Shown: positions 19,229-60,397, numbered from the stretch's first letter. The stretch is DNA of 64,000 nucleotides from Planctomycetota bacterium (GCA_020638635.1 JACKIE010000001.1:305906-369905), one strand, 5' to 3'. Made by a program: numbers and translations. Notes: generated by a model from the letters alone, not told the origin.

Positions 19229-19636
19229 CTAGCGTCTGCCCAGGCAAACGCTGTGCACAACCTTGATGCAACTGTTCACGAACACCTCGATGCCGTGGTC
19301 GCGCAGCTTGTCTTCGACTTCGTAACCGCCGGCGTTGAGCTGGAACCAGACCGCCTTCGGTAGCGGGTTCATGGCCAGCACCTGCGCGCACACCTCGTGT
19401 TCGTGCTCTGATGCTCTGAACACGTCCACGATGTCCACGGGCTCGGGTATGGCTTCCAGCACTCGGTAGCAGGTGAGGCCTTCGATTTCGTCATGGCCCG
19501 GGTTGACCGGGATGATCTTGTAGCCAGCGCGCTGCATGTACATGGCAATGGCATGGCTGGTGCGCTGCGGCTTGGGCGACATGCCCAGCACGGCAATGCG
19601 GCGCGCGTCTTGAAGGATTTGGCAGGCGGCATCCAT
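19229..19636 (-). CDS. CoA-binding domain protein (YccU/YneT-like)
   Basis: RRIAVLGMSPKPQRTSHAIAMYMQRAGYKIIPVNP pattern. 135 aa. Confidence 0.75.
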   Translation of the reverse strand: MDAACQILQDARRIAVLGMSPKPQRTSHAIAMYMQRAGYKIIPVNPGHDEIEGLTCYRVLEAIPEPVDIVDVFRASEHEHEVCAQVLAMNPLPKAVWFQLNAGGYEVEDKLRDHGIEVFVNSCIKVVHSVCLGRR

Positions 19637-19729
19637 CGATTTTGGATTTTAGATTTTCGATTTTGGATTGGGCTGGATGGACGGGGCTGCTCCCCCCAAT
19701 CCGAAATCCAAAATCCTAAATCCAAAATC
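19637..19729. repeat. heptamer-array hairpin (GATTTTN)5
   Basis: Arm 19638-19672 is GATTTTG GATTTTA GATTTTC GATTTTG GATTGGG. Its inverted partner is 19695-19729. 31 of 35 positions are complementary. It fills the 95-bp spacer between two same-strand genes. Confidence 0.9.
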
Positions 19730-19731
19730 TC

Positions 19732-20211
19732 CTAGTATCGGTCCCCGCTCTTGCGCACGTGCACCCAGGGCTCGCCTTCCTTTAACATACGGCCGCCGAT
19801 CACTTCGCCGATCACCAGGTTGTGCTCGGTGCTGGGCTCAAGAGTGCGCAGCAGGCGGCACTCGAGGAAGCCCAGCGCGTCGGGCAGGTAGGGCGTACCG
19901 TTGTCGGTGCGCTGGATGTTGGCGCCCTCGAAGGGGTCTTCGCTGATGCCGAATCCCTTGGCGAACTGGCCCATCAGCTTCTTGTCTTCGGTGCCCAGGA
20001 TATTGAGCGCGAAGTGCGCGCCCCGCCCAAGTTGGCGCATGATCGGGCGGTCCTGCTTGATCGCCACGCTGACGGCCGGCGGGCTGAAACCCGCCTGGCA
20101 CACCCAGCTGGCAAGGAATGCCGCGCGCTGGCCGTTGTTCTCGGCCGTCACGATGTAAAGGCCGGTGGGCACGCGTCCCAGCGCCTGGATGTCCGGAGCA
20201 GCTTCGGGCAT
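19732..20211 (-). CDS. flavin reductase-like FMN-binding protein
   Basis: GLYIVTAENNGQRAAFLASWVCQAGFSPPAVSVAI, typical of the split-barrel flavin reductase domain. Confidence 0.75.
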   Translation of the reverse strand: MPEAAPDIQALGRVPTGLYIVTAENNGQRAAFLASWVCQAGFSPPAVSVAIKQDRPIMRQLGRGAHFALNILGTEDKKLMGQFAKGFGISEDPFEGANIQRTDNGTPYLPDALGFLECRLLRTLEPSTEHNLVIGEVIGGRMLKEGEPWVHVRKSGDRY

Positions 20212-20228
20212 GGGAACTCTCGGTCGTC

Positions 20229-20297
20229 GGTTGCCAGTTGTCGGTTGTCAGTCACTGCGGTTTTCAGGCGCCGGCCGACAACTGACAACCGGCAACT
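20229..20297. repeat. heptamer-array hairpin (GTTGNCN)3
   Basis: Arm 20229-20251 (GGTTGCCAGTTGTCGGTTGTCAG) against 20275-20297. 19 of 23 positions are complementary. All 4 mismatches are A/G at the variable heptamer position. Confidence 0.85.
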
Positions 20298-20302
20298 GAG
20301 AA

Positions 20303-21409
20303 CTAAATGTAAACACGCGCGACGCGGCGGCCTAATCCGCACAGGATTTCGTACGGGATGGAATCCGCCCAGCGGGCGACTTCCGCCAGCGTGATTTCTT
20401 CTTCGCCGTCGCGGCCGATCAGCGTTACTTCATCCCCCACGGCGGCGTCCGGCACCAGGCTTACGTCCACGGTTGTGTAGTCCATGCTCACGCGCCCCAC
20501 CACCGGGCAGCGCACTCCGCGCAGCAGCACCTCGGCGCGGTTGCTGAGGCTGGTGCGGTAGCCGTCGTTGTAGCCCACGGGCAGCGTCGCGATGCGCGCC
20601 GGCGCGGGCGTGTAGTAGGTGCGCGAGTAGCCGATCGGCGTTCCCTCGGGGACGTCTTTCAGGAACAGCACGCGGCTCTTGAGCTGCAATGCGGGCTTGA
20701 GCTGCTCCGCGTTGCCGTGCTCGTCGCCGGGCAGCAGCCCCCACAGCGCCACGCCCGTGCGCACCATGTTGAAGTAGGCGTCATCGCGGCCGAACACGGC
20801 CAGTGACGACGAGCTGTGCAGCGTCAGCCCCGTGTAGCCCAGGCGCTCTGCCACCTCCACGGCCAGGTTGAAATGCTCGATCTGGCGGGTGGTAAAGGCC
20901 GGGTTGCGCTCGTAGGGCAGGCTGAAGTGCGTGCACATGCCCACCAGCTCAAGGTTACGCAGCCTGCGCAGGTTGTGCAGGAACGGCACGGCCTCGAAGG
21001 GCTGCATGCCCAGGCGGCCCATGCCGGTGTCCACCTTCAGGTGGACGCGCACGCTGCGCTGCTGTTTGGCGGCCTCGGCGTTGAGTTCTTCGGCCATCTG
21101 CACGGTGTGCAGGTTGACCTCGATCTCGTTGGCCACCACGCGCGGCATTTCGCCGGGGATGATGCCGCCCACGATCAGGATCGGCGTGGTGATGCCCGCG
21201 TCGCGAAGCTCAAGCGCCTCGCCGCTGTCGCCCACGCCAATGGCGTCAACGCCCTCGGCCGCGAGCAGCTTGGCCATCTCGACGGCGCCGTGGCCGTAGG
21301 CGTTTGCCTTGAGCACGGCCATCACGCGGGTGTCGCCCACGCGCTGGCGGATGGCGGCCAGGTTGTGGCGCACGGCGGACTTGTCGATCTCGGCCCAGAC
21401 GCGATGCAT
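20303..21409 (-). CDS. alr: alanine racemase
   Basis: PLP-lysine context VMAVLKANAYGHG. 368 aa, with the C-terminal beta-domain region VGRVSMDYTTVD. Confidence 0.93.
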   Translation of the reverse strand: MHRVWAEIDKSAVRHNLAAIRQRVGDTRVMAVLKANAYGHGAVEMAKLLAAEGVDAIGVGDSGEALELRDAGITTPILIVGGIIPGEMPRVVANEIEVNLHTVQMAEELNAEAAKQQRSVRVHLKVDTGMGRLGMQPFEAVPFLHNLRRLRNLELVGMCTHFSLPYERNPAFTTRQIEHFNLAVEVAERLGYTGLTLHSSSSLAVFGRDDAYFNMVRTGVALWGLLPGDEHGNAEQLKPALQLKSRVLFLKDVPEGTPIGYSRTYYTPAPARIATLPVGYNDGYRTSLSNRAEVLLRGVRCPVVGRVSMDYTTVDVSLVPDAAVGDEVTLIGRDGEEEITLAEVARWADSIPYEILCGLGRRVARVYI

Positions 21410-21412
21410 GGG

Positions 21413-21496
21413 TTCAATTCAAAATTCAAAATGCAAAATTCAAAATCAGCCTGCCGGCGATGGCGGCATTTTGAATTTTGCATTTTTCATTTTGAA
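21413..21496. repeat. heptamer-array hairpin (CAAAATN)4
   Basis: Arm 21413-21446 (TTCAATTCAAAATTCAAAATGCAAAATTCAAAAT) against 21468-21496. 27 of 29 positions are complementary. Confidence 0.9.
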
Positions 21497-21597
21497 CTGG
21501 CCTTGGCCTTGCCTTCGATCTTCTTCCGTTCCTTGGCGTTGCGCAGCTTGCGGCGCTTGGACTTGAGACGGCTCTTCTTGCTGCTGTTGTAACCCAT
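21487..21597 (-). CDS. possible 36-aa highly basic peptide
   Basis: ATG 21597 preceded by AGGAA. MGYNSSKKSRLKSKRRKLRNAKERKKIEGKAKASSK. No family recognised. The last codons lie inside a hairpin arm. Confidence 0.3.
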   Translation of the reverse strand: MGYNSSKKSRLKSKRRKLRNAKERKKIEGKAKASSK

Positions 21598-21605
21598 GTT
21601 GGTTC

Positions 21606-22244
21606 CTATTCCGGTTTCACACTTTCCGCCCACTGGCGTATGGCCGTGCCCGCGGCCTCGGTGTCGGATGTAAGCACGACGCCGACCACGACGTAAGTAC
21701 CCAGCTTGTTCGAGATGGCAAAGACCGGGACCTCGCCGCCCTGCAGCTCGATCCAGCCCAGACTGTCGTTTCCTTCGCCGCTGCCTTCGCCGGCGGCGAC
21801 CTGCTTGCCCAGCTCGGCCGCGGCGGCCTTGGCCGGCTTCTGTTCCTTGCTCACGAAGTAAAGCAGGGCCCCGGCGGCCTGCTTCTCCCATTCGCCCCAG
21901 GCCTCGTCGGGCTCGGTGGGGCCGGGGGCCTTGCTGTTGACGACGCCGCTTACGAACTTCCAGTCCTTGGGGATCGGCTTCACGTGGCGCTCGAGTTCCT
22001 TCTGCACGGGGCTGTTGCCCTTCACCGCGTGCCAGCCGGCGGGCAGCGCCGACTTCACCTTCTTCCACAGGTCGGGGTCTTCCCTGGGGCCTTCCTCCGG
22101 CGTATTGGCAGGGGCCGGCTTGTTGCCGCCGCCGGATCCGCCGCCGGTGTTGCCGCCGGCCGGCGGCGCGACGTTGCCGCCGCCGCAGGCCGTGAGGGCC
22201 AGAGTCATTGCCAGGCAAAGTGCCGTAGCGAAATAGCGTGCCAT
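21606..22244 (-). CDS. lipoprotein, function unknown
   Basis: Lipobox LALTAC in MARYFATALCLAMTLALTACGGGN. Confidence 0.65.
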   Translation of the reverse strand: MARYFATALCLAMTLALTACGGGNVAPPAGGNTGGGSGGGNKPAPANTPEEGPREDPDLWKKVKSALPAGWHAVKGNSPVQKELERHVKPIPKDWKFVSGVVNSKAPGPTEPDEAWGEWEKQAAGALLYFVSKEQKPAKAAAAELGKQVAAGEGSGEGNDSLGWIELQGGEVPVFAISNKLGTYVVVGVVLTSDTEAAGTAIRQWAESVKPE

Positions 22245-22318
22245 GCCGAACCTCCAGTGCGGGGGCCGGCAATCCTAGCCACGAATCCAGAATTCAAAAC
22301 GGGAAAAATCGACGCGAG

Positions 22319-22786
22319 CTAGAACTCGTCTTCGTTCTCTGTCGGCGGTGTGTACTCGCGCGCCGGCTTTGCGGGCTCGGTTGCTGCTTCACGGGGCGCG
22401 CTGCATGGGGCAGCCGGCCCCGTGCATTCAACCGGCCGCTGCTCCAGCATCTCGTGCGTCCAAGGGTCGCGCTGTAGAAGGCGCAGCGCGTTCACGGAGA
22501 TCACGATTGCGATCACCAGGATGAACAGGCCGTTGCCGCGACAACGGACGTGTGTGCACTCGCGCGGGCGCGCTGCGCCGAAGCGCACGGGCACCCAGCG
22601 CCCGTCGCCAGCGGGGCGCGAGGGCAGCCGCGAGTTGTAAAGCCCCTGGCTGGATTCGCCCGGTACTTCCACCACGGACAGACAGTCCGGGCAGCGGATG
22701 CGCTTACCGGCGTAGAACTCGCTGAGTTCGCGCTGCCAGCCGCAGGTGCATTGGGCCCTGGTCCGCATGTCGCAAGTATACCACAT
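22319..22786 (-). CDS. zinc-ribbon membrane protein
   Basis: CTCGW...RCPDC four-Cys ribbon and one TM helix (LFILVIAIVISVNALRLL). The start may be M7 (22768). Confidence 0.5.
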   Translation of the reverse strand: MWYTCDMRTRAQCTCGWQRELSEFYAGKRIRCPDCLSVVEVPGESSQGLYNSRLPSRPAGDGRWVPVRFGAARPRECTHVRCRGNGLFILVIAIVISVNALRLLQRDPWTHEMLEQRPVECTGPAAPCSAPREAATEPAKPAREYTPPTENEDEF

Positions 22787-26617: not shown

Positions 26618-26798
26618 CTCGGCACCGGATGCCACTTGTAAAGGCGACTACTGGCTAACCACGACGGACCACCAAGAACCACGAAGGAGGGCTCTTGTCG
26701 GTCAATGGCTGTATTCTGTGCGGTTGAAATTCAGCCTGGAACCGTGTGGAGCGTCATGCCGCTGCGCCAGTCCAAAATCTAGAATCCCAAATCCCCAA

Positions 26799-27371
26799 TC
26801 ACCCCAATCCCCGCCGGTCCCGCTGCCCGCGTTCATCCGTCCCGATGCCCATCACGGCGTCGGCCTGTTCGCGCGTCATCGCAGGTCGGTATGGCTGCGG
26901 CGGCAACTCGCCCCGGGCCCGCAGCACGAAGTCGCGGGCCCATTGACGTGTAAAGACCCGGCTGTGCTGGTTGTGCTTCAACTCGATCTTCAGCCCCTGC
27001 TGCACGATCCGCGCGCCGCACTCGACCAGGCGCTCCTCGATCAGCTCGATCGCGCGCCCGAAGTTGCGGTAGGCGCGGTCGCAGCCCACGAACGCGGCCG
27101 CCGGGACGCCATCGAGTTTGCGCCGGGGAACCAGCAGTTCAAGCATGCCGCGGTCAAACGGCAGCCAATCGCCGTGGTGCTCGCCGTCGCCCCAGGTGGG
27201 CTCGCCCAGCAGGATCGCCTGCGCCTCCAGCAGGATTGACGCGTCAAGACCGTAGGCGTTGTAGCTGTCCACGCTCGCGCCGGCTGACTCGGCGCCCTCG
27301 GCGGCCAGCTCGGCCGTCTCACGGGTATTGCCGCCCGTGCTGGCGTATACGATCACCAGCTTCAGGCTCAT
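26799..27371 (-). CDS. flavodoxin-like protein with C-terminal extension
   Basis: KLVIVYASTGGNTRETAE FMN-phosphate loop and LLGEPTWGDGE. ATGA overlap with the upstream PAS gene. Confidence 0.75.
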   Translation of the reverse strand: MSLKLVIVYASTGGNTRETAELAAEGAESAGASVDSYNAYGLDASILLEAQAILLGEPTWGDGEHHGDWLPFDRGMLELLVPRRKLDGVPAAAFVGCDRAYRNFGRAIELIEERLVECGARIVQQGLKIELKHNQHSRVFTRQWARDFVLRARGELPPQPYRPAMTREQADAVMGIGTDERGQRDRRGLG

Positions 27372-29048: not shown

Positions 29049-30914
29049 TTAGCCGCGCGAGGATTTAAGCCACACGCGCAGCACCGTCAGATCCGCCGGG
29101 CCGATCCCCGGGATGCGCGCCGCCTGCCCCAGCGTGCGCGGCCCCACGCGCGCCAGCTTCTCGCGCGCCTCTTTGCGCAGCGGCTCAATGCCCGCGTAAC
29201 GCAGGCCCTGCGGCAACTTGAAATCCTCCAGCTCGCGCATGCGCGCGACCTCGGCGTCTTCACGGTCCATGTAGCCCGCGTAGCGCGCGTCGATTTCCAG
29301 CGTATCCACGGCCTCGGGGTCCAGCGCGTCGAGTTGCGGCAGGAGCGCGCGCACCCTGGACCACTCGAAGTTCGGCGTGCGCAGCCAGTCATAAAGGCTC
29401 TTGCCCTCGTGGCGCCTGGCGCGCAGCAGAGCCTCGCCGCGGTCGTAGGCCTCCTGCTTGTCGTCGAAGCGCTCGCGACGCGCGGCATCCACGCAGCCCA
29501 GCGTGATGCCCAGCGGCGTCAGGCGGCGGTCGGCGTTGTCCGTGCGCAGGCGCAGGCGGTACTCGGCCAGGCTGGTGAACATGCGGTAGGGCTCGTCGGT
29601 GCCGCGCGTGGTCAGGTCGTCGATCAGCACGCCGATGTAGGCCTGGTCGCGCCGCAGCACCACGGGTTCGCGCCCGGCCAGGCTCAGCGCCGCGTTCAGT
29701 CCTGCCATCAGGCCCTGGGCGCCGGCTTCCTCGTATCCGGTCGTCCCGTTGATCTGGCCGGCGAGGTACAGCCCGCGCACCAGCTTGGTCTCCAGCGTGC
29801 TGTGCACCTGGGTGGGCGGCACGAAGTCGTACTCGACCGCATAGCCGTACTTCAGGATGCGCGCGCGCTCAAGCCCCGGGATGGTGCGCACCAGGGCGTC
29901 CTGCACGTCGCGCGGCATGCTGGTGCTGATGCCGTTGGGGTAGACCTCGTCGGTGTCCAGCCCCTCTGGCTCAAGGAATACGTGGTGGCTGCCGCGGTCG
30001 GGGAAGCGCTTGATCTTGTCCTCGATGCTGGGGCAATAACGCGGCCCCACGCCCACGATCTGTCCGCTGTAGAGCGGGCTGCGCGCCAGGTTGTCCGCGA
30101 TCACCTGGTGAGTGGCCTCGGTCGTGCGCGTGATGTAACAGCTCACCTGTTGGCCGGTGATGGCCGAAGTCAGGAACGAGAACGGCCGTGGGGGCTCGTC
30201 CCCCTTCTGCTCTTCCACCCTTAACCAGTCAATACTTGACCCGTCAAGGCGCGGCGGCGTGCCTGTTTTCAGGCGCCCGGTACGGAAGCCCAGCGCCTTC
30301 AGCTGCTCGGAAAGGCCGTAGCTGGCTTTTTCGCCCGCGCGCCCGCCGGCGATCTTGTCTTCGCCGTAGTGCAGCAGCCCGCCCAGGAAGGTGCCGGTGG
30401 TAAGCACCACGCGCGGCGCGCGGAGTTCACGGCCGTCGGCGAGGGCGACGCCGGAGACCGCCAGTCCCGTGTCCCGCGTCCCGTGTCCCGTGTCGCAGTT
30501 ACTGACCCGGGACGCGGGACTCGGCACTCGGGACGTCGTCAGCCCGACTGCTTCTCCCTCAACGATCGTCAGCCCGCTCGCGCCCTCGCACATCGCCTGG
30601 GCCGCGCGCTGGTACGCGGCCTTGTCGGCTTGCGCGCGGGGCGAGATCACCGCCGCGCCCTTGCTGGTGTTCAGCATGCGGAACTGGATGCCGGCGTTGT
30701 CGATCAGCCGCCCCATGGCGCCGCCCAGGGCGTCGATCTCGCGCACGATCTGCCCCTTGGCCACGCCGCCAATGGCCGGGTTGCAAGACATGCGCCCAAT
30801 GCCGTCGCGGGTGAAGGTAAGCAGGCAAACCGAAGCCCCCAGCCGCGCCGCCGCCAAAGCGGCCTCAATCCCGGCATGCCCCCCACCCACCACGATGACG
30901 TCGAACTGTATCAT
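29049..30914 (-). CDS. mnmG: tRNA uridine 5-carboxymethylaminomethyl modification enzyme MnmG (GidA)
   Basis: [46 protein letters not shown] and [12 protein letters not shown] motifs. It contains a ~21-aa insert, see findings. Confidence 0.95.
30464..30535. repeat. heptamer-array hairpin (GTCCCGN)4 inside the mnmG coding sequence
   Basis: Arm 30464-30492 (GTCCCGT GTCCCGC GTCCCGT GTCCCGT G) against 30507-30535. 24 of 29 positions are complementary, with a ~14-nt loop. Confidence 0.8.
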
Positions 30915-33698: not shown

Positions 33699-33840
33699 CC
33701 CGGCCGGCAACGGCCGGGGATCACAATCCTGATGGTCGTACTCGCTGATCGTACAACAAGGCGAGAGTCGTTCGCTTCGGTGCGTGCTTCAATATCTTCG
33801 ACCGGCACACGCCTTATCCCCGGCCATGGCTGGCCGGGTT
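33697..33840. repeat. REPIN/MITE-like element, copy 2
   Basis: AACCCGGCCGGCAACGGCCGGGGAT (33697-33721) and ATCCCCGGCCATGGCTGGCCGGGTT (33816-33840). It shares ACACGCCTTATCCCCGG and the internal core with copy 1. Confidence 0.8.
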
Positions 33841-36493: not shown

Positions 36494-36567
36494 GGCTGCT
36501 GGCTGTTGGCTGTTAGCCGTTGGCTGTTAGCTAACAGCCAATAACTAGTAGCTAATAGCTAGCAGCC
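36494..36567. repeat. heptamer-array hairpin (GGCTGTT-type), loopless palindrome centre at 36530/36531
   Basis: 37-nt arms. 29 of 37 positions are complementary, and all 8 mismatches are transitions. Confidence 0.9.
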
Positions 36568-36572
36568 AACCC

Positions 36573-37375: not shown

Positions 37376-37523
37376 AAGCCCGGCCAGCAATGGCCGGGGA
37401 TCCGGCTGGTGCGCGAACCGCTACGGCAAAGCCCCCTCCGAAGGGAAGCACGTTCGCCTTGATGCCCGCGGGGCACAGGCTGGATGCGCGACGACGTAAT
37501 CCCCGGCCATGGCTGGCCGGGTT
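37376..37523. repeat. REPIN/MITE-like element, copy 3 (internal core inverted relative to copies 1-2)
   Basis: AAGCCCGGCCAGCAATGGCCGGGGAT (37376-37401) and ATCCCCGGCCATGGCTGGCCGGGTT (37499-37523). The reverse complement of the interior contains GCATCAAGGCGAACGTGCTTCCCTTCGG. Confidence 0.8.
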
Positions 37524-38950: not shown

Positions 38951-39038
38951 GTGAACAAGAGCCCGGAGCGCAAGCGACGGGTTGACGCGCATTTGGTTAA
39001 CGGGCTCCCGGTCGCTTGCGCTCCCGGCTCCTGTTCAC
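38951..39038. repeat. long imperfect intergenic hairpin
   Basis: Arm 38951-38981 (GTGAACAAGAGCCCGGAGCGCAAGCGACGGG) against 39007-39038. 28 of 31 positions are complementary. The right arm overlaps the dxr stop codon. Confidence 0.85.
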
Positions 39039-47399: not shown

Positions 47400-49328
47400 C
47401 TATTCGTCGGCGGGTTTCTCCGCCGGGGCCGTTTCGGTCGATGCGGGCGAGGTTTCTGCCGGGTCTGCTTCGGGTGGCGTTTCGTGGGTCATGCTGGCTT
47501 CGGGCTCGGGGAGCTTGCGGTGCTCGCGGGTGTCCTTGATGGCGAGCGCGTCCTTTTCCTCGGCCAACGTCATGCCGAACTTCAACTTGAGTTGCTGGAA
47601 GCCGTCGCGGATTTCCTTCACCTTGCGGATCGACTCCTCGACACTTCCGGTCGTGCGGTTCACGTAGTCGAAGAACGGGCCGAAGCTCTCGCGGATCTTT
47701 TCCACGGCTTCACGCGCTTCCTTCTTGATCTGCTCTTCCAGCACGTTGGCCAGCGCGGCCTTCAGCTCGGTGATCTTGTTACTGAACTCGGCCTTGATCT
47801 TGCGGCGCTGCATCGGCAGCACCAGCATCGAGCCGCCCAGCAGCGTCAGGCCGGCCAGGATGCCCGTCACGTCAATCCACGTGAAGCCCGCGGCCGTGGT
47901 CAATGCCACCACAGCGGCGCCGGCGCCCACGCCGATCAGGCTGCCGCCGATGGCCGTGTTGATGCCGGTGGCCGCGCGCCCCATGAAGCGGCGCATCTGG
48001 TCTTCGTAGTCAAAGCCCTTGATCTTGTCCTTGGCGTCGGCGCGCACCAGGTCATATATCTTTTCGCGGTTGTACTCGAACTTGGTGCCGACCTTGCCCA
48101 CCATGCCCTCGTGCGGGCGCAGCGCGGCCTGGTCGCTGAAGTACTGCGTCGTGTCCTGCCAGACCTTCAGGTACTTCTTCATGAACCAGTCGACGGCCTT
48201 GTTCAGCGTGTCGTCTATCTTGGTCTCGTAGTCCTTGATCACTTCCTCTTTGAAGCGGCCCCGGAAGCGCTCGGCCGACTTCAGCATCCCCATGTTGGTC
48301 AGCTTGACGTTGTCATCGACCCAGTTGCGGCCGCGCTTTTCCATCTCGAGGATGATGTTGTCGATTTCCAGGATGAAGCGGCCGAAGTTCTCGGACATGT
48401 CCGACTCGGACTGCTCGAGCTGGCCCCTGATGTTCTCGAGCACGCGCTTGTCGTCCTTGAGGTGCGCCATGCGGGCCGTGAAGGCCTCGCCGGCGCGGTC
48501 GCAGATCGACATGGCGCTGTTGATGGGGCTTTCCAGCTTGAGCTGCAGCTTTTCGCCGACGGACAGCTTCTCGAACAGGAACTGTTCCAGCGCCTTGAAG
48601 CCGGATTCCTCGTACAGCGCGTCGTCGCGGGTTTCCTTGGCCTTGCGCGCCTGCTTGGCGCTGACCATGAAGATTTGCGGCTCGAAGTCGAAGAACTTCT
48701 TCACGCTGTCGGTGACGAAATCGTTGATCTCGACGAGCTCGTGGGGCTCCTTGATGTCCTTCTTGGTGATCACGAAGATGATCTTCTTCGCCCAGCCCTC
48801 CACGATGTAGCCCAGGAACTCGCGCTCCGTCTGGCTGAAGGGGCGGTCCACGCTGGTGGTGAACAGGATCAGGTCGCAGCGCGGGATGAAGCTCTCGGTG
48901 ATCTCGCCGTGGCGCTTGACGATGCTGTTGGTGCCCGGCGTGTCCACGATGTTGATGTTGCGCAGGGGCTCGAAGGGCAGCTGCTTCTCGACCAGGAACT
49001 CCTCGATGATGCGCTCTTTCTCGGTGTCGCCGTACTTCAGCACGTGGATTTTGTCGGTCGTGGGAATCGCGCCGACCTTGCACACATCGGCGTTCAGCAG
49101 GCTGTTGATGAAGGTGCTCTTGCCCGCCTTTACCTCGCCCACCACCACCAGCAGGAACAGCTCTTCCAGGTGGCCGGTCAGGCCGGCAACCTGGTCGATC
49201 ACCTGGTCTTCGAAGTCCTGCTTGATCAGCAGGTCGCGCAGGGCCTTCAGCAGCTCGCGCTCTTCAGACATGCCCTGGGCGATTTTTTCGTCCAGGCGCT
49301 GCGTAAGGGTATTCGGGGCTTCGGTCAT
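47400..49328 (-). CDS. bacterial dynamin-like GTPase
   Basis: Start at MTEAPNT (ATG 49328, AGGAA RBS). G1 GEVKAGKST, G3 DTPGTNS, G4 TKKD. Hydrophobic paddle IGVGAGAAVVALTTAAGFTWIDVTGILAGLTLLGGSMLVL. Confidence 0.85.
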   Translation of the reverse strand: MTEAPNTLTQRLDEKIAQGMSEERELLKALRDLLIKQDFEDQVIDQVAGLTGHLEELFLLVVVGEVKAGKSTFINSLLNADVCKVGAIPTTDKIHVLKYGDTEKERIIEEFLVEKQLPFEPLRNINIVDTPGTNSIVKRHGEITESFIPRCDLILFTTSVDRPFSQTEREFLGYIVEGWAKKIIFVITKKDIKEPHELVEINDFVTDSVKKFFDFEPQIFMVSAKQARKAKETRDDALYEESGFKALEQFLFEKLSVGEKLQLKLESPINSAMSICDRAGEAFTARMAHLKDDKRVLENIRGQLEQSESDMSENFGRFILEIDNIILEMEKRGRNWVDDNVKLTNMGMLKSAERFRGRFKEEVIKDYETKIDDTLNKAVDWFMKKYLKVWQDTTQYFSDQAALRPHEGMVGKVGTKFEYNREKIYDLVRADAKDKIKGFDYEDQMRRFMGRAATGINTAIGGSLIGVGAGAAVVALTTAAGFTWIDVTGILAGLTLLGGSMLVLPMQRRKIKAEFSNKITELKAALANVLEEQIKKEAREAVEKIRESFGPFFDYVNRTTGSVEESIRKVKEIRDGFQQLKLKFGMTLAEEKDALAIKDTREHRKLPEPEASMTHETPPEADPAETSPASTETAPAEKPADE

Positions 49329-49353
49329 CCGTTCCTGTTTCGTACTGCAGCCT

Positions 49354-49425
49354 CGCGCAGAGACCGCAGAGGGCGCAGAGAGTGGCAAAACCGCAGTTCT
49401 CTGCGCCCTCTGCGTACTCTGCGCG
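49354..49425. repeat. nonamer-array hairpin (GCGCAGAGN)3 in a divergent promoter region
   Basis: Arm 49354-49382 (CGCGCAGAGACCGCAGAGGGCGCAGAGAG) against 49399-49425. 25 of 27 positions are complementary. Confidence 0.9.
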
Positions 49426-49507
49426 GGACTGCTTTTGTAGCTTCCCTAAAACCTACAACGCGGAACCTAAAACCTGTATCCTGCATCACTTGTTGGCTGT
49501 CAAGCTT

Positions 49508-52342
49508 ATGACGCGAAAGCACCTCCTGGCCACCCTTCCCGTTCTCGCCCTGCTGTTGTTAGCGGGCGCCTGGGCAGTCTTGCGGCCGGAGGGTTCTTCC
49601 CTGCTCCCCATTATCGGGACCAGCGACCAGAAGTCATCGGGCAAGCAGAAAGAAACTCCGCTGACCGAGGTTCCGCCGCAACTGGACGACAGCGGCAACC
49701 CCGTAGCCGAGACCCCCCCCGCCAACACCGAAGGCCTGCTGCCGGGCATCGATGAGTCCGAGCAGGAGCGAATCAAGCAGGCCCGCGAAGAAGCGCGCAT
49801 CCGCGCCGAGCAGGAGGCCGCCCAGGCGGACACGGAATCAAAGCCCAGCCCGCAAGGGCTGGGTAATCCGAAAGCGACCGACCAGGCCGGCAACGAAACC
49901 CAGCCAGACACCCGAACACCCGAACAGAAGGCCAAAGACGCCGAGCGCCAGCGCCGCATTGACGAACTGAAGGCGATCAAGCGCCCGCCCAACCAGAGCC
50001 TGGGCAACGTGCGGCCGCGCACGCGCAAGCTGGAAAAAGAGGCGGGCAAGAAGGAGCTGTCCGAGATCAGCCCCAAGCTGATGCAGGACAGGCGCGGCCT
50101 GTACGCGAAGTACTACGCTTTCAGCCAGTTGCCGCTCAACGCGCTGCTGGACCCGGACCAGCCCGAACTGGCCCAGCGCACGCCCGAAATCACGCGCATT
50201 GACCCGCAGGTGTACTTCCCCAGCAAGGACGCCTGGGCCGACCTGCCCTTCGACAAGCGCAACTTCATGGGCGTGTGGGAGGGCTTCCTGGTGATCAAGG
50301 AGGCCGGCGATTACTGGCTGTATTTAGGCGCCGACTACACCGGCGTGGTGACGCTGGACGGCGAAAGCGTGCTGTACAACGACATGCGCGACTACACCGA
50401 GGTCAGCACCGTGCTGACCTTGACGGCCGGTTTGCACCCGATCCGCATCGATTACATGGAGGGCGAAAACGGCAGCCCGGTTGATCCGCTGGCAGCCTGC
50501 AACTTCATGTACGTACCGGAGGGGCAGAGCAAGCCGATCCCGGTGCCGCCGGAAATGCTGATGTTGCCGGAGGCGCTCTGGAGCGACAACGCGCCGATCA
50601 TTACCAAGCTCAGCAGGTATGAGGGTGAGATCGGCGACGAGATCACGATTTTCGGCCAGAACCTCGACGGCGACACAAGCCCCGCAATGTCGGTGAAGCT
50701 GGAGGACTTGCCAAAGCTGCCGCCTCTGATCCGGGTTCAGATCGCCGGACAGGCCGCGGCGATTCTTGAGCACAGCGACACTTCGCTGAAGGTTCGCATC
50801 TCGGTCGGTGCAACAACCGGCAAAGTGATCGTGTTCAAGGCGACCGCAGCGGGCGGTGGCGGAAGTTTCGGGAGCATTCAACCGGAGTACGCGAACGCCG
50901 TTCCGTCAAACTCAGTGGACTTCACTGTCACCACGCAGTACGGCCTGTTCGCTTCATGGCACAACCTGGCTGGCTGGTCGAACTACGACTTCATTGACGA
51001 CACGCTGCACAAGCCTGACGTGGTGCGGCTTGAGCGCGACTTCATGTTCGAGACTCGCGCGGACATCGACCTTGGCTTCCGCAACAACCCGCTGGCCTGC
51101 CACTGGGAAGGCAAGCTCGGCATCCCGGCCGGCTGGGTGCCCGAGGGCCAGATGGCGCTGGTGCGCTTCCAGACCTACGGCCGCCTGCGCGTGAGGCTGG
51201 GCGAGCAAATGCGCGAGACGGCCGCGCAAACCGGCGGCACGTTCAACCTGACCACGCTCGACTTCGAAGTCAGCAACCGAGAGGAGCACTACCTGCCCCT
51301 CAGCATCGACTGGACCAGCGAGACCGGCCCGGCCGGGCTCAAGATCGTGAAGATGGTCAGCGTGCCCGCGGAGAAGAACCCCGAAGGCGGCTCCGGCATC
51401 GCCTGGGCGGAAGACAGCGTGCTGCCCTTCCAACTGTTCTTCCCGCCCGTTGTGCCGCCCAAGCCGCCGCGCATTGTGAGCGCGAAGCCGCTCTTCGCCG
51501 AGGGCGAGCAGCCGCCGATCCTGCCCTACGACATCACCACCACGCGGCCGTCGATCCGCGAAGGCCAGTTGTTCGAGTTCAACCTGGAGGTGTTCGGCAA
51601 CGCCGAGGTGCTGGCGGCGCCGGTTAACCTCACCGTGGACGGCGTGCCGCTGGAGTACACGGTCACGCAGACCGAAACCGGCAACGGCGGCGGCATGATC
51701 CGCACTTGCCAGGCCGTGCTGCCGAGCGGCCTGGGCGAGGGGGCCATCGTCGCGCGCCTGACCGTGGTGACCAGCGAGCCCTTCTACATTGATGTCCAGA
51801 ACAAAGGTCTGATCGCCTACTACTACGACCTGCCCAACCCGGGCGGCTACACGCAGATGCCCGACCCGGAACCCCTGGCCTGCTTCCAGGTGCGCAAAGA
51901 CGCCTGGGTGAACTTCGAAAACGCCAACCAGTTCGACCTGCCCTTCCCGGCCGAGACCTTTGCCGTGGAGTGGTTCGGCGCGCTGATCATCGAGACCGAG
52001 GGCGACTACCGCTTCACCTGTCGCAGCGACGACGGGATCCTGGTGTGGCTCGATGACAACCTGGTGCTGGCCGACGACAACCTGCACTACCAGCGCGAGA
52101 AGACCGGCGACTGGGTGCACCTGGTGCCCGGGACATACAACTTCCGGATGCAATTCTTCGAGAACAACGTGCACGAGGTGTGCGTGCTGCAGTGGGACGC
52201 GCGCACGGACAAAGAGCAGGCCGAGAGCGAGTTCATCCAGCGCGGCATCATTCCCAAGCGCCACTTCACCTGGGACCAGCACCCGGCCCTGCCCCAGAAG
52301 ACCAGCACCGGCAAACGCGCCGACGGCTCGGACCCCGAGTAG
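49508..52342 (+). CDS. large secreted/anchored protein with two PA14-like domains and an IPT/TIG-like domain
   Basis: Start at MTRKHLLATLPVLALLLLAGAWAVL. PA14-like GVWEGFLVIKEAGDYWLYLGADY... and FAVEWFGALIIETEGDYRFTCRSDDGILVWLDD. IPT-like PIITKLSRYEGEIGDEITIFGQNL. Confidence 0.75.
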   Translation: MTRKHLLATLPVLALLLLAGAWAVLRPEGSSLLPIIGTSDQKSSGKQKETPLTEVPPQLDDSGNPVAETPPANTEGLLPGIDESEQERIKQAREEARIRAEQEAAQADTESKPSPQGLGNPKATDQAGNETQPDTRTPEQKAKDAERQRRIDELKAIKRPPNQSLGNVRPRTRKLEKEAGKKELSEISPKLMQDRRGLYAKYYAFSQLPLNALLDPDQPELAQRTPEITRIDPQVYFPSKDAWADLPFDKRNFMGVWEGFLVIKEAGDYWLYLGADYTGVVTLDGESVLYNDMRDYTEVSTVLTLTAGLHPIRIDYMEGENGSPVDPLAACNFMYVPEGQSKPIPVPPEMLMLPEALWSDNAPIITKLSRYEGEIGDEITIFGQNLDGDTSPAMSVKLEDLPKLPPLIRVQIAGQAAAILEHSDTSLKVRISVGATTGKVIVFKATAAGGGGSFGSIQPEYANAVPSNSVDFTVTTQYGLFASWHNLAGWSNYDFIDDTLHKPDVVRLERDFMFETRADIDLGFRNNPLACHWEGKLGIPAGWVPEGQMALVRFQTYGRLRVRLGEQMRETAAQTGGTFNLTTLDFEVSNREEHYLPLSIDWTSETGPAGLKIVKMVSVPAEKNPEGGSGIAWAEDSVLPFQLFFPPVVPPKPPRIVSAKPLFAEGEQPPILPYDITTTRPSIREGQLFEFNLEVFGNAEVLAAPVNLTVDGVPLEYTVTQTETGNGGGMIRTCQAVLPSGLGEGAIVARLTVVTSEPFYIDVQNKGLIAYYYDLPNPGGYTQMPDPEPLACFQVRKDAWVNFENANQFDLPFPAETFAVEWFGALIIETEGDYRFTCRSDDGILVWLDDNLVLADDNLHYQREKTGDWVHLVPGTYNFRMQFFENNVHEVCVLQWDARTDKEQAESEFIQRGIIPKRHFTWDQHPALPQKTSTGKRADGSDPE

Positions 52343-52397
52343 GGGCGGCCCCATGTGGCCGCCCTGGTCCGCCCGGGCCGCCACATGGGGCGGCCCC
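52342..52397. terminator. bidirectional GC-rich hairpin between convergent genes
   Basis: GGGGCGGCCCCATGTGGCC ... GGCCGCCACATGGGGCGGCCCC occupies the entire 54-nt spacer. Confidence 0.6.
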
Positions 52398-54061
52398 TAC
52401 CGCGGCAATCGCAGCTCGGCCGGGTGGTCGGCGTCGTGGAACAGAGTTACCTCGACATCCAGCGCCTTGGCCTTGTCGTAGTGGTCCGCGCCGGTGTGGC
52501 TGTTGAGCTCGTACCGTGGGCTGTTGCCGCCGGTGACGATCAGCTTCAGCTTGTGGTCTTGTCGCCAGGAGTAGGCGTGGGGCGCGAGCTTCAGCGTGAG
52601 GCTGTAGGTCTCGCCGGGCTTGAGTTCCTGCACCGTCTTGCCGTCGCGCAGCTTGGCGCGCTGGATGGTCTCCCCCACCAGGTACAGTTTGCCGTCCGGG
52701 GCCTCGTCGCACAGACGCAGGTGGATGTCCGTGTCCACACGGTTGCAACTGAAGTACACGGTCAGCTCTACTTCGCCGCGGATCGCCAGCGGCTCGGCCA
52801 GCTTGTCGGTGGCATAAACCAGCACGTCCTTGCGGCCGGCGATCTTGGAAATCTCCTTGGGCCCGTGGGTCAGGGGTGGCAGGTTTCGGCCGCCGATGGC
52901 GGGAGAGGGATCTTTCGGGTCAAACTTGTATTGACGTGTCAGTGGTTGTTCTTCGCTTGCGGTACAGGGCTTGTTGGTGCTGAGGACGCCGTCCGCATTG
53001 AGGTAGTAACTGGTGTGCTTACCCGCCAGCTTCTGCCAGCTTTCCGCGCCGTGCCACTTGTTCTCGCCGCACTGGAAGGCGCTTACCACGGGCACGTCTT
53101 CCCACCCGCTGTCCTCAAGGCCGCGCAGGTAGTGGTCGAAGAACTTCAGAGTGATCTTCGTGGAGTAGTCTTCTGCCTCGGGGTACTTCAGGTCGCCTTG
53201 CTCACTGACATCAATGGCCGTGTGCGACCAGGGGCCCATCACCAGCTTGCTCTCCTTGGCCTTACCCGTGCCCTGGCTTAGCAGGTCCGCGTGCTGCTGG
53301 ATCACTTCGCGCGGGTAGTTGTCCCACCAGCCGCTGATCAGCAGGCAGGGCACGTTGATCTTCTCCGGGTGATAGCTCTGGCTCAACGCGAAGGTCCAGA
53401 GCCGCGTACCGGGCAGGGGGTTATCGGTCACGAACTTGCTCACGCCGAATCCCAGCCGGTCAAGGCTCTTGGTGTGGGCTTCCAGCTGCACGCCGCCTTC
53501 ATAGTAGCTTTCGTAGCGGTTTCCCTGGTAGGCGATCAGCGGCGCGCAGCACACCAGGTGCGGCGGCTGCTCGGCGGCCGTGTCGAACTGCTGCTTGCCC
53601 AGCGCCGAGCCGCCCCAGGTGCCGACCTTGCCATCGCACCAGGGCTGGGTGGCGCACCACTCGACGCAGTCGTAGCCGTCCTGGCCGCGCTTCCACTTCA
53701 GGCGGTTTACGCCCTCCATGGCGGCCTTGCTGCCGTAGAAGCCGCGCCAGTCCACGAACACGTAGGCGTAGTGCTCGCGGTCGAACTGCGACCAGGCCTT
53801 GTCGCTGCCGCGGCCGACCTCGCTGGTCTTGTCGCCGTACTCGCGGCCCATGCGGTCCTTGTCGTAGGGCGTCTGTACCAGGATGCAGGGGTACTTGCCG
53901 CGCTTTTCGGGCAGCAGCACGTTGGCGGCCAGTGTCTTGCCGTCGCGCATGGGAATGGCGACGTCGGTCAAGGTGGTCCGCCAGGGGTCTTCGGCGTCGT
54001 CGTCTGCGATCACGAACGGCGCCAAGGCAAGCAGCAGCAGACAGGCGGCAATCAGGCGCAT
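52397..54061 (-). CDS. CocE/NonD-family (S15 X-Pro dipeptidyl-peptidase-like) hydrolase
   Basis: Start at MRLIAACLLLLALAPFVIADD behind an AGGAG RBS. Family-typical PYDKD and VDWRGFYGS segments. C-terminal beta-sandwich domain. Confidence 0.8.
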   Translation of the reverse strand: MRLIAACLLLLALAPFVIADDDAEDPWRTTLTDVAIPMRDGKTLAANVLLPEKRGKYPCILVQTPYDKDRMGREYGDKTSEVGRGSDKAWSQFDREHYAYVFVDWRGFYGSKAAMEGVNRLKWKRGQDGYDCVEWCATQPWCDGKVGTWGGSALGKQQFDTAAEQPPHLVCCAPLIAYQGNRYESYYEGGVQLEAHTKSLDRLGFGVSKFVTDNPLPGTRLWTFALSQSYHPEKINVPCLLISGWWDNYPREVIQQHADLLSQGTGKAKESKLVMGPWSHTAIDVSEQGDLKYPEAEDYSTKITLKFFDHYLRGLEDSGWEDVPVVSAFQCGENKWHGAESWQKLAGKHTSYYLNADGVLSTNKPCTASEEQPLTRQYKFDPKDPSPAIGGRNLPPLTHGPKEISKIAGRKDVLVYATDKLAEPLAIRGEVELTVYFSCNRVDTDIHLRLCDEAPDGKLYLVGETIQRAKLRDGKTVQELKPGETYSLTLKLAPHAYSWRQDHKLKLIVTGGNSPRYELNSHTGADHYDKAKALDVEVTLFHDADHPAELRLPR

Positions 54062-57441: not shown

Positions 57442-58398
57442 CTACGGGATACGCGAGGCCAGTTTCGGACTGGGGTAGTCGGCCAGCCAGGCGGTAAGTT
57501 CCGCGTCGCTGGGCCGATTGGAGGGCTTGATTAGTTGGACCGCGGCCAGCAGCAGCACCGGCGCCACCACGAAGCAGCTGGAGATGAACAGCTTGCGCAC
57601 CTCGGGCGCGTCGAACTCGACGCCCGGCTCCGGCTGGTAGGACCAGCCCAGCCACGCCATCACGCCCAGGTTGAACAGCAGGATGCCCCCCCAGAACAGC
57701 GGCGCGAACAGGCCCTTGGCCGGCACATAGGGCAGTGTCACGGCTTTGCCGCTTGCCAGCTCGCGCGCGGCCATCAGGGCATCCACGCGTTGGTTGATGA
57801 AGATGATGACCCAGCCCACCACGAACCAGCCCGCGTAATTGGCCATCGTCACGCTGAAGTGATAGCCCGGAGAAGGGTAGTGGTAGATGTCGCCCAGGAA
57901 CCAGTGACGGCCGAGATGCGCCACGGGATCAACCACCACGTCGATGAGGGTCATCAGCGCGGCACCCAAGAACAGCGTGGCGGGCGAATTGCGTATGCCG
58001 CGCGAGGTGACGCGCTGGTAATCAAAGCCGCGCCGCCACAGTGGCGACATGAAGAACTGGGCGAAAGAGAAGCTGACGTAACTCAGGAAGGCGAACGACA
58101 AACTGTCAAAGAACGGCACGCCGAAAATGGTCAGGTCGTTGGCCAGCACGTCGTGGTGATAGACGTAGTAGCCGAAGGGCACGCGGATGTCCGGGTTCAC
58201 GCTGGCCCACTCGGCCGCCAGGGCCACCAGGTAGCCGCTGACCAGCCAGATCAGTGTGCGCAGCTTGCCCTGCTCCATCCAGCTGAAGGCCAGGAAGGCC
58301 AGCAGGAAGATGAACACATAGGGCCGGTGTGTGATGCTGTAGAAGAGTGCAGACACTGTGGGTCCTGTGGGACTAGTGGGACACATGATAGGTCCCAC
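57442..58398 (-). CDS. polytopic membrane protein (possibly DUF422/carotenoid-biosynthesis-protein-like)
   Basis: About 7 hydrophobic helices. The start is uncertain: ATG 58398 lies inside a hairpin, and GTG 58356 (VSALFYSITH) is more plausible. Confidence 0.5.
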   Translation of the reverse strand: MGPIMCPTSPTGPTVSALFYSITHRPYVFIFLLAFLAFSWMEQGKLRTLIWLVSGYLVALAAEWASVNPDIRVPFGYYVYHHDVLANDLTIFGVPFFDSLSFAFLSYVSFSFAQFFMSPLWRRGFDYQRVTSRGIRNSPATLFLGAALMTLIDVVVDPVAHLGRHWFLGDIYHYPSPGYHFSVTMANYAGWFVVGWVIIFINQRVDALMAARELASGKAVTLPYVPAKGLFAPLFWGGILLFNLGVMAWLGWSYQPEPGVEFDAPEVRKLFISSCFVVAPVLLLAAVQLIKPSNRPSDAELTAWLADYPSPKLASRIP

Positions 58399-58416
58399 CT
58401 GTCATACCTGTCCCAC
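58358..58416. repeat. nonamer-array hairpin (GTGGGACNN)3
   Basis: Arm 58358-58383 (GTGGGTCCTGTGGGACTAGTGGGACA) against 58391-58416. 18 of 26 positions are complementary, with a 7-nt loop. Confidence 0.65.
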
Positions 58417-58421
58417 TTGTC

Positions 58422-60347: not shown

Positions 60348-60397
60348 GTGGTCAGTCATAATTCCCTGATCGCACCGGACCACTTGCCACTGACCAC
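60348..60397. repeat. intergenic hairpin with GTGGNCAG-type repeats
   Basis: GTGGTCAGT (60348-60356) pairs perfectly with ACTGACCAC (60389-60397). The related words GTGGCCAGC and GGCCAGTG lie just upstream. Confidence 0.5.

Follow-up and report, generated by a model that had tools for sequence, protein, structure and literature searches.

The 64,000-nucleotide (nt) stretch of Planctomycetota DNA analysed here (GCA_020638635.1, JACKIE010000001.1:305906-369905; hereafter the window) carries on its minus strand a co-directional chain of four genes (19229-21597, assigned by Pfam matches and synteny), the three spacers of which are each filled by one long imperfect hairpin with arms of tandem heptanucleotide repeats. 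In the direction of transcription, the chain consists of a small open reading frame (ORF; 21487-21597), alr, encoding alanine racemase (Ala_racemase_N/C; 20303-21409), a gene for a flavin reductase-like protein (Flavin_Reduct; 19732-20211), and a gene for a CoA-binding protein (CoA_binding_2; 19229-19636). The small ORF upstream of alr encodes a very basic product of 36 residues (MGYNSSKKSRLKSKRRKLRNAKERKKIEGKAKASSK), to which no Pfam family was matched; it is kept in most members of the clade described below. The repeats are of a known kind, found here for the first time in a group of Planctomycetota: the orthologous sites add comparative detail on their birth and replacement but do not define a new class of element.

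All three hairpins are encoded on the minus strand. The spacer between the flavin reductase and CoA-binding genes (19637-19731, 95 nt) has arms at 19638-19672 and 19695-19729, with 31 of 35 positions paired around a 22-nt loop; written as mRNA, the arms are (GGAUUUU)n and (AAAAUCC)n. The spacer between alr and the flavin reductase gene (20212-20302, 91 nt) has arms (AGUUGYC)n and (GACAACY)n at 20218-20244 and 20275-20301 (23 of 27 paired). Between the small ORF and alr the spacer itself measures 77 nt (21410-21486), but the hairpin continues through 21499, with arms at 21415-21446 and 21468-21499 (29 of 32 paired) and the word TTCAAAA/CAAAATN. Its 5' arm is the A-rich one, the minority polarity among the hairpins, and covers the final codons of the 36-residue ORF, whose stop codon falls within the first repeat units. 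These pairings come from an ungapped arm scan. Tandem Repeats Finder (TRF) calls period-7 arrays in both arms of all three spacers, and the RNA folds of the transcribed strand lie between -44.5 and -45.9 kcal/mol, with z-scores of -5.7 to -7.4 against 200 shuffles, none of which matched the native energy (19637-19731: -45.9 kcal/mol, z -5.75; 20212-20302: -45.0 kcal/mol, z -5.67; 21410-21499: -44.5 kcal/mol, z -7.35). Scan, repeat calls and folds thus agree with a first-pass annotation of the window, which had described the spacers as long imperfect hairpins with tandem 7-nt arms. The GC content of the spacers is 0.44 (19637), 0.59 (20212), and 0.38 (21410), compared with ~0.64 for the window. 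The two downstream spacers (alr to flavin reductase and flavin reductase to CoA-binding) are base-identical in contigs of ERZ27248703, ERZ28655403, and SRR14234062 that encode an identical flavin reductase. Because these are three independent assemblies, the two hairpins are no artefact, a concern raised at the outset, and they are not hypervariable at the strain level.

Comparison with relatives places these structures in a wider population. Loci collected by a match to the Alr protein (numbered L001 onwards) come exclusively from uncultured Planctomycetota metagenome-assembled genomes (MAGs), mainly of wastewater and freshwater origin, with protein identities of 98% (L001), 88-91% (L002-L006), 69-81% (L007-L021 and L030), and ~50% for the rest. 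A scan of metagenomes with the flavin reductase yielded 14 loci, one of them close (L084). The synteny of the chain is kept in L001-L016, L020, and L021. With 21-64 kb read per genome, the close clade amounts to 469 kb and a distant Planctomycetota comparison set to 853 kb; long hairpins are those of at least 16 pairs in the ungapped scan, and arrays are those called by TRF. Within the window, 11 hairpins reach this length and five of them have period-7 arms, while 30 dinucleotide shuffles gave 1-6 hairpins each and none with period 7, so that these structures are more frequent than in shuffled sequence. The close clade has 20.2 period-7 arrays per 100 kb and the distant set 4.8, and period-7 arms characterise 30 of the 99 long hairpins in the former but one of 249 in the latter; two further long hairpins of the close clade have period-10 arms. 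The preference for a unit of seven is marked, with 95 period-7 arrays in the 469 kb compared with 1-9 each for periods 4, 5, 8, 10, and 11. The density in the close clade is about one site per 7 kb, and 46 of the 65 period-7 sites (71%) are two-armed, the solitary arrays reaching up to 12 units. The clade sample comprises more than 20 genomes from different studies, and most of them carry analogous hairpins. Within the Planctomycetota sampled, the period-7 enrichment is restricted to this clade. A full-text literature search found no description of such hairpins in Planctomycetes; one survey reports over-representation of G-patterns in Isosphaera (PMC4060949).

The position of the hairpins is as regular as their period. 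Most period-7 sites are intergenic, the exceptions that were checked, in mnmG and a gene for a class II aminoacyl-tRNA synthetase (aaRS), being insertions that keep the frame, and some other apparently coding sites being due to over-called start codons. Inside co-directional chains the hairpins span the distance from stop to start codon: their stems start anywhere from 10 nt before to 9 nt after the stop codon and finish 1-24 nt before the next start. All of the ~26 intergenic period-7 hairpins, many of them orthologous and therefore non-independent, lie between co-directional genes, against a background of 72%. The stems are broken by 1x1 mismatches about every 7 nt, and of the 113 mismatches in 30 hairpins, 41 affect the unit's most degenerate position, where 16 are expected (p = 5e-9). 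In the three hairpins tested for register, the observed register (0) pairs best, but a shift by +/-7 nt comes close to it, and shifts by +/-7 or +/-14 nt still pair 76-89% of positions; such register degeneracy is as slippage predicts. On the transcribed strand, 28 G.U mismatches are balanced by 32 A.C mismatches (p = 0.70). As G.U is not in excess of A.C, nothing marks the RNA strand as the selected molecule.

At orthologous sites the position of the hairpin is conserved while its sequence is turned over, as appears when the spacers of the relatives are compared. The flavin reductase to CoA-binding spacer carries GGATTTT in the window and L007, GGTTTCA in L001 and L015, GGGCTTA in L006, L020, and L021, AGTTGTC in L003 and L084, and GGTGTTT in L002, while in L004, L010, L011, L012, and L016 it measures only 9-24 nt and has no hairpin. 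Between the small ORF and alr, (GGATTTT)n replaces the window's word in L001, L003, and L005. Across the chain, hairpin-free spacers of 9-35 nt are found in L004, L010, L011, L012, L014, L015, and L016, so that one and the same site may be filled or empty, depending on the relative. Traces of earlier states survive: the ancestral 'CGAAGCCC' beside the ATG, downstream of the hairpin, is kept in L006 and L020, and a one-armed remnant is kept in L010. Replacement is wholesale and has sharp borders, in flanks that are 90-99.8% identical. Between the window and L001, flanks of 90-95% identity align up to three hairpins, where the BLAST alignment stops exactly. In the closest comparison (L084 2981-3042 with L001 11679-11783), the hairpin is entirely different although the upstream sequence is 99.8% identical over 2980 nt and the downstream sequence 97.7%; this step in identity suggests that recombination may have had a boundary at the hairpin. 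Retained hairpins diverge about half as fast in the stem as in the loop. In the alr to flavin reductase spacer, the window and L001 differ at 0 of 61 arm positions and at 11 of 30 positions in loop and tail, compared with 13% at third codon positions. Over 11 orthologue pairs, paired positions diverge by 15.1% and unpaired ones by 29.1% (p = 8e-7), a difference that may be biased, as the pairs are non-independent and repeats align easily.

The repeat words are numerous but not private to their loci. About 45 canonical heptamers are found at 69 sites, and the core that some of them have in common is partial, which agrees with the first-pass view that the hairpins are not copies of one mobile repeat. 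The same annotation held that each word was unique to its locus; this does not stand, since GATTTTN, AGTTGYC, GGGAATC, GGTTTCA, and GGGCTTA recur at unrelated sites. GATTTTN occupies at least four independent sites (flavin reductase to CoA-binding in the window, mnmG in L001, small ORF to alr in L001, L003, and L005, and further occurrences in L007, L018, and L094). GGGAATC is found at three different sites in four genomes: small ORF to alr in L009, L015, and L021, mnmG in L009 and L021, and the aaRS gene in L011. AGTTGYC fills two adjacent spacers in both L003 and L084, and ACCACTG occupies two sites within L002. The L084 hairpin between the flavin reductase and CoA-binding genes has the word of the neighbouring spacer and a 17-mer in common with it. 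GATTTT hairpins at non-orthologous sites have a common, partial GC-clamped apex ('GATTG-GCGC-N4-GCGC'), which in L003 and L094 agrees at 17 of 19 positions. The loops of non-orthologous copies differ, and by eye no near-identical long copies were seen within any one genome among the sampled loci; L002 5361 and 9915, like positions 19638 and 26766 of the window, have only 9-11-mers in common (by eye). Single-linkage clustering of words at a distance of at most 1 chained nearly all of them together and was uninformative, so exact canonical words are used here; at that distance, 149 word pairs are observed compared with 56 +/- 7 for shuffled words, a count inflated by orthologous sites. Some words match those published from other phyla, namely GGGAATC (Xanthomonas), GGGGATT and TTCAAAA (Nostoc), and the class I motif TDNGATT (Nostoc trnL).

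Coding sequences accept the same structures. A period-7 hairpin with arms (GUCCCGN)n and (GACRCGG)n (30453-30538, minus strand) lies in frame within mnmG/gidA (ORF 29049-30914); the first-pass annotation had listed it, at 30464-30535, among the spacers, and while its period of 7 holds, the site is inside the coding sequence. The ORF matches Escherichia coli GidA (3cp2_A) with E = 2.6e-178, the insert being aligned to gaps and corresponding to ~21 extra residues in a loop. In seven orthologues the segment measures 21 (empty), 57, 69, 81, 84, 90, and 90 nt, all multiples of three; the segments are free of stop codons and represent four different words. The mnmG array of L009 and L021 starts in flank sequence, at the TCGGGTA of the empty L010 allele, which suggests local seeding. 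The class II aaRS site is empty (30-33 nt) in eight genomes; L012 and L014 have a filled site of 99 nt, and L011 one of 111 nt built from other words. The window's mnmG insert and the aaRS insert of L014 have in common GAGTCCCGAGTGCC, a 14-nt super-unit and the peptide motif SRVPSP...GTRDTG, while the other inserts at the two sites encode unrelated peptides. At both sites (coordinates 29049-30914 in the window, 536-2407 in L001, 712-2619 in L002, and 14968-16725 in L014) the inserts add 12-30 residues, and relatives have different words at the same codon position, together with some empty alleles.

The first-pass annotation did not recognise these hairpins as a described element class, yet close counterparts have been published. 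In Xanthomonas, (GGGAATC)n, and in Nostoc, (GGGGAYT)n, arrays consist of degenerate 7-nt units, about four per array, are 89-93% intergenic and mostly between co-oriented ORFs, differ in length and sequence at the same site among close relatives, and include 70-75 convergent pairs that could fold into a stem-loop (Rehm et al., 2015, PMC4692102). Convergent arrays of the same word, capable of forming a stem-loop, are likewise the rule at the 46 two-armed sites described here. The Xanthomonas word GGGAATC is also found in L009, L011, L015, and L021, and the Nostoc word GGGGATT is that of the array at 26783 in the window. However, the Xanthomonas repeats use essentially one G-rich word (GGGANTN) with G-quadruplex potential, whereas dozens of words are used here, and the hairpins of this clade span the stop-to-start gap and also occur in frame in essential genes. 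A related class comprises the cyanobacterial short tandemly repeated repetitive (STRR) sequences and long heptanucleotide simple sequence repeats (SSRs), as relayed in later papers (Mazel, 1990; Mrazek, 2007; via PMC4679880, PMC4692102), together with the TAACTGA repeats of Beggiatoaceae (PMC4679880) and (TTCAAAA)3 upstream of Nostoc recF (bioRxiv 10.1101/2022.06.06.494920). The last word is that of the hairpin at 21413-21496. The likeness extends to a favoured unit of 7, tandem copies (three or more) in mostly non-coding arrays that often abut start codons, a sporadic phylogenetic distribution, and variation of copy number and sequence among close relatives. STRR arrays are mostly described as direct, whereas 71% of the sites here are palindromic pairs.

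The stem-loop P6b of the Nostoc tRNA-Leu(UAA) intron was reportedly described by Costa and colleagues in 2002 as being made of 7-nt repeat motifs. In this group I intron, 7-nt repeats of class I (TDNGATT) or class II (NNTGAGT) form both sides of the P6b stem, indels of 7 or 14 nt affect one or both sides, variation falls mostly at unpaired positions, and a fixed position has repeatedly seen one repeat class replaced wholesale by the other (Kaasalainen et al., 2015, PMC4476775). Both features, stem sides of one 7-nt motif and its replacement at a fixed site, are found here, and class I resembles GATTTTN while class II resembles GAGTSCC. The difference lies in the host sequence, P6b being a peripheral element of a self-splicing intron and the present hairpins lying in mRNA spacers and coding sequences. 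In-frame palindromes in housekeeping genes are also known from the Rickettsia palindromic elements, which are ~100-150 bp long, have a conserved consensus and peptide, and are inserted in unrelated genes in a way that protein function tolerates (PMC10969869); the inserts of mnmG and the class II aaRS gene recall them, but the present elements are 60-140 nt long, consist of heptamer arrays, and have no conserved consensus.

Other classes of palindrome fit less well. Repetitive extragenic palindromic (REP) sequences and their paired form, REPIN, have a conserved consensus of 20-40 bp, a GTAG or CGTC tag, and an associated REP-associated tyrosine transposase (RAYT) gene (PMC3116915, PMC3733652). 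As short, abundant extragenic palindromes between co-directional genes, the present hairpins are similar, but no consensus is common to them, and inspection by eye of the three hairpins of the chain reveals no consistent GTAG/CGTC tag, so the REP-like architecture proposed by the first-pass annotation is not upheld. A miniature inverted-repeat transposable element (MITE) is recognised by terminal inverted repeats, a target-site duplication, and conserved internal sequence. Here, comparison of empty and filled sites by eye reveals no target-site duplication, and copies have only a word or a partial apex in common. An integron attC site is an imperfect palindrome between RYYYAAC and GTTRRRY core sites, located among mobile cassettes beside an integrase. 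On inspection of the three chain hairpins, GTTGCC and GTTGTC do not fit GTTRRRY, and the flanks are syntenic housekeeping genes. A G-quadruplex reading is likewise rejected: words such as AGTTGTC or CAAAATT have no such potential, and many words are without G runs. No Rfam family (at the gathering threshold) or tRNA was found in the window.

The hairpins are probably, though with modest confidence, STRR-like heptanucleotide SSR palindromes, a phenomenon primarily of the DNA level that persists at sites able to accommodate a compact hairpin. According to the mechanism proposed, replication slippage, in steps of 7 or 14 nt, would expand a 7-nt word into a short tandem array, the seed being either local sequence or another array reached via microhomology. 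Intramolecular (fold-back) template switching would then copy the array into a second, inverted arm. Survival would be limited to places where a compact hairpin does little harm, that is, to co-directional stop-to-start gaps, in which the folded stem would keep stop and start codons physically adjacent, and to in-frame surface loops of proteins. Once present, the stem may be kept paired by selection, and whole hairpins may be lost or replaced in single events; any effect on expression would reflect tolerance or coupling rather than purpose. Local origin by slippage and inverted duplication had been suggested in the first-pass annotation. It remains the most economical origin, given the flank-grown mnmG arrays and the solitary arrays of up to 12 units, but its purely local part is challenged by the presence of the same words elsewhere.

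Several observations run counter to this tolerated-repeat account. The clade sample covers ~0.5 Mb around one locus and many sites are orthologous, so the statistics overstate independence. A polarity bias, with a G/T-rich 5' arm in 22 hairpins and a C/A-rich one in five, is not predicted by plain slippage. Nor are the hairpins hypermutable as contingency loci are, because they do not vary among strains whose flavin reductase is identical. The recurring words and the shared GATTTT apex point to copying between loci rather than to purely local birth. Slower stem divergence and strict stop-to-start co-directional placement would also fit a selected RNA function, such as a block to 3' exonucleases, processing by RNase III or RNase E, or hiding of the downstream start site until a ribosome terminating at the stem base opens it, so as to enforce translational coupling, with heptamer periodicity as the easiest mutational route to a long stem. 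Tight placement between stop and start codons, positions kept across sub-clades despite sequence change, and very stable folds speak for such intercistronic elements, as does the arm polarity, which usually puts a G-poor, C/A-rich arm beside the downstream start codon. We nevertheless consider them rather unlikely, given that several relatives do without any hairpin, that elements also occur within coding sequences and in one divergent spacer, that G.U pairs are not favoured on the transcribed strand, that the linked genes are functionally unrelated according to Pfam, and that solitary one-armed arrays exist. Movement or copying of non-autonomous elements by a RAYT, by an IS200/IS605-like hairpin-recognising enzyme, or by ectopic gene conversion would account for identical words at non-orthologous sites of different genomes, the super-unit and peptide motif common to the mnmG insert and the L014 aaRS insert, the GC-clamped apex of the GATTTT family, the 17-mer and word of L084, and cassette-like replacement with sharp borders. 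Yet conserved termini, a GTAG/CGTC tag, and target-site duplications are not evident by eye (termini and tag at the three chain hairpins, duplications between empty and filled sites), in the absence of a systematic scan; loops differ between non-orthologous copies, words number ~45 at 69 sites, near-identical long copies within one genome were not seen by eye, and some arrays grow from flank sequence, all of which makes mobility an unlikely explanation.

Quite improbable, too, is a lineage-restricted machinery in place of generic polymerase slippage. It might be a polymerase, primase, nuclease, or recombinase specific for hairpins or for heptamers, and it would make and replace the palindromes in Nostocales, Xanthomonas, and this clade alike. 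If true, such a dedicated process would account for the words that these groups have in common (GGGAATC, GGGGATT, TTCAAAA, GATTTDN), for the prevalence of G/T-rich 5' arms, and for cassette-like replacement, including that at in-frame sites in essential genes. Intrinsic, possibly bidirectional, terminators extended by repeat growth are very unlikely. The apex of the 21410-21499 hairpin (21452-21468), a GC-rich mini-stem between A-rich and T-rich arms, is terminator-like on both strands, but it is the sole such core in the terminator scan, which gave no hit in the other two spacers. Furthermore, most 3' arms are C/A-rich and lack a U tract, elements also lie inside coding sequences, and the start codon lies 1-24 nt further on, too close to fit a promoter; a scan of 19000-22400 gave no promoter-like site. 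The terminator architecture put forward in the first-pass annotation is therefore confined to one apex. An assembly or synthetic artefact is hardly conceivable, considering the identical sequence in three independent assemblies and the analogous hairpins in MAGs from different studies.

For the origin and function of heptanucleotide repeats, a question that dates back to the description of STRR sequences in cyanobacteria, this clade is a useful source of comparisons. Its orthologous sites may be empty, have one arm or two, or be filled with another word, in flanks that range from identical through 99.8% down to 70% identity, and with such a graded series the rates and modes of birth, growth, and replacement become measurable. 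The mnmG and aminoacyl-tRNA synthetase genes show that these repeats can lengthen essential proteins by 20-30 residues. Gene callers over-extend ORFs through the hairpins: in this genome of 64% GC, ORFs run through hairpins and spacers (for example 29049-30914, 47400-49388, and 49382-52342), and mechanical calls therefore over-extend start codons. From the sequence comparisons, the hairpins may also mark recombination or assembly breakpoints in MAGs, and they are good candidate strain markers, as P6b of Nostoc trnL already is.

Eight other places in the window had been assigned the same design, and these differ from locus to locus. Period 7 holds at two of them, the mnmG site and a (GGCTGTT)n palindrome on the minus strand (36494-36570; TRF and scan, with a weaker fold z of -2.85), which lies in the 104-nt spacer between genes for a 3-hydroxyacyl-CoA dehydrogenase and an enoyl-CoA hydratase (Pfam). 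The one-armed version noted at 26766-26810 is a solitary (AATCCCC)n array at 26783-26812 (TRF), with no inverted partner. Three further loci are repeat hairpins but not heptamer arrays. At 14794-14991, TRF and the scan define a composite nested palindrome with outer arms (CGCGAAGNT)x3 of period 9 and an inner hairpin (14830-14915) with period-8 arms. L001 17842-18021 aligns to 14812-14990 of the window in an orientation opposite to that of the collinear flanks (BLAST), and the flipped interior looks like the outcome of DNA-level recombination between the (CGCGAAGNT)3 arms. A period-9 (CGCAGAGNN)n hairpin (49347-49432; -71.3 kcal/mol, z -11.4) lies in a divergent spacer of 179 nt, between gene starts at 49328 (minus) and 49508 (plus), and a weak period-9 (GTGGGACNN)n hairpin (58358-58422, minus strand; TRF, z -1.79) lies at a gene junction. 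The site at 60348-60397 is not convincing. The hairpin at 38951-39038, between the dxr and alcohol dehydrogenase genes, is strong (-64.1 kcal/mol, z -8.15) but not periodic; its arm GAGCCCGGAGCGCAAGCGACGGG reappears one-armed between alr and the flavin reductase gene in L005 and L006. The hairpin represents a distinct family of dispersed repeats that occupies sites of the same type.

Long non-periodic hairpins are also found at 52339-52400 (26 of 29 paired) and 16026-16120 (29 of 34 paired), the former, between convergent genes, being a plausible bidirectional terminator. Finally, a unit of ~142 nt is present in three copies (15053-15194, 33699-33838, and 37379-37521) and is absent from every relative locus collected. 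The interiors of the copies are only loosely alike (74% mean column identity), and a small GC hairpin, CCCGGCCAGCAATGGCCGGGGAT, bounds each of them at both ends in inverted orientation; the unit may be a REP-doublet or MITE-like element.

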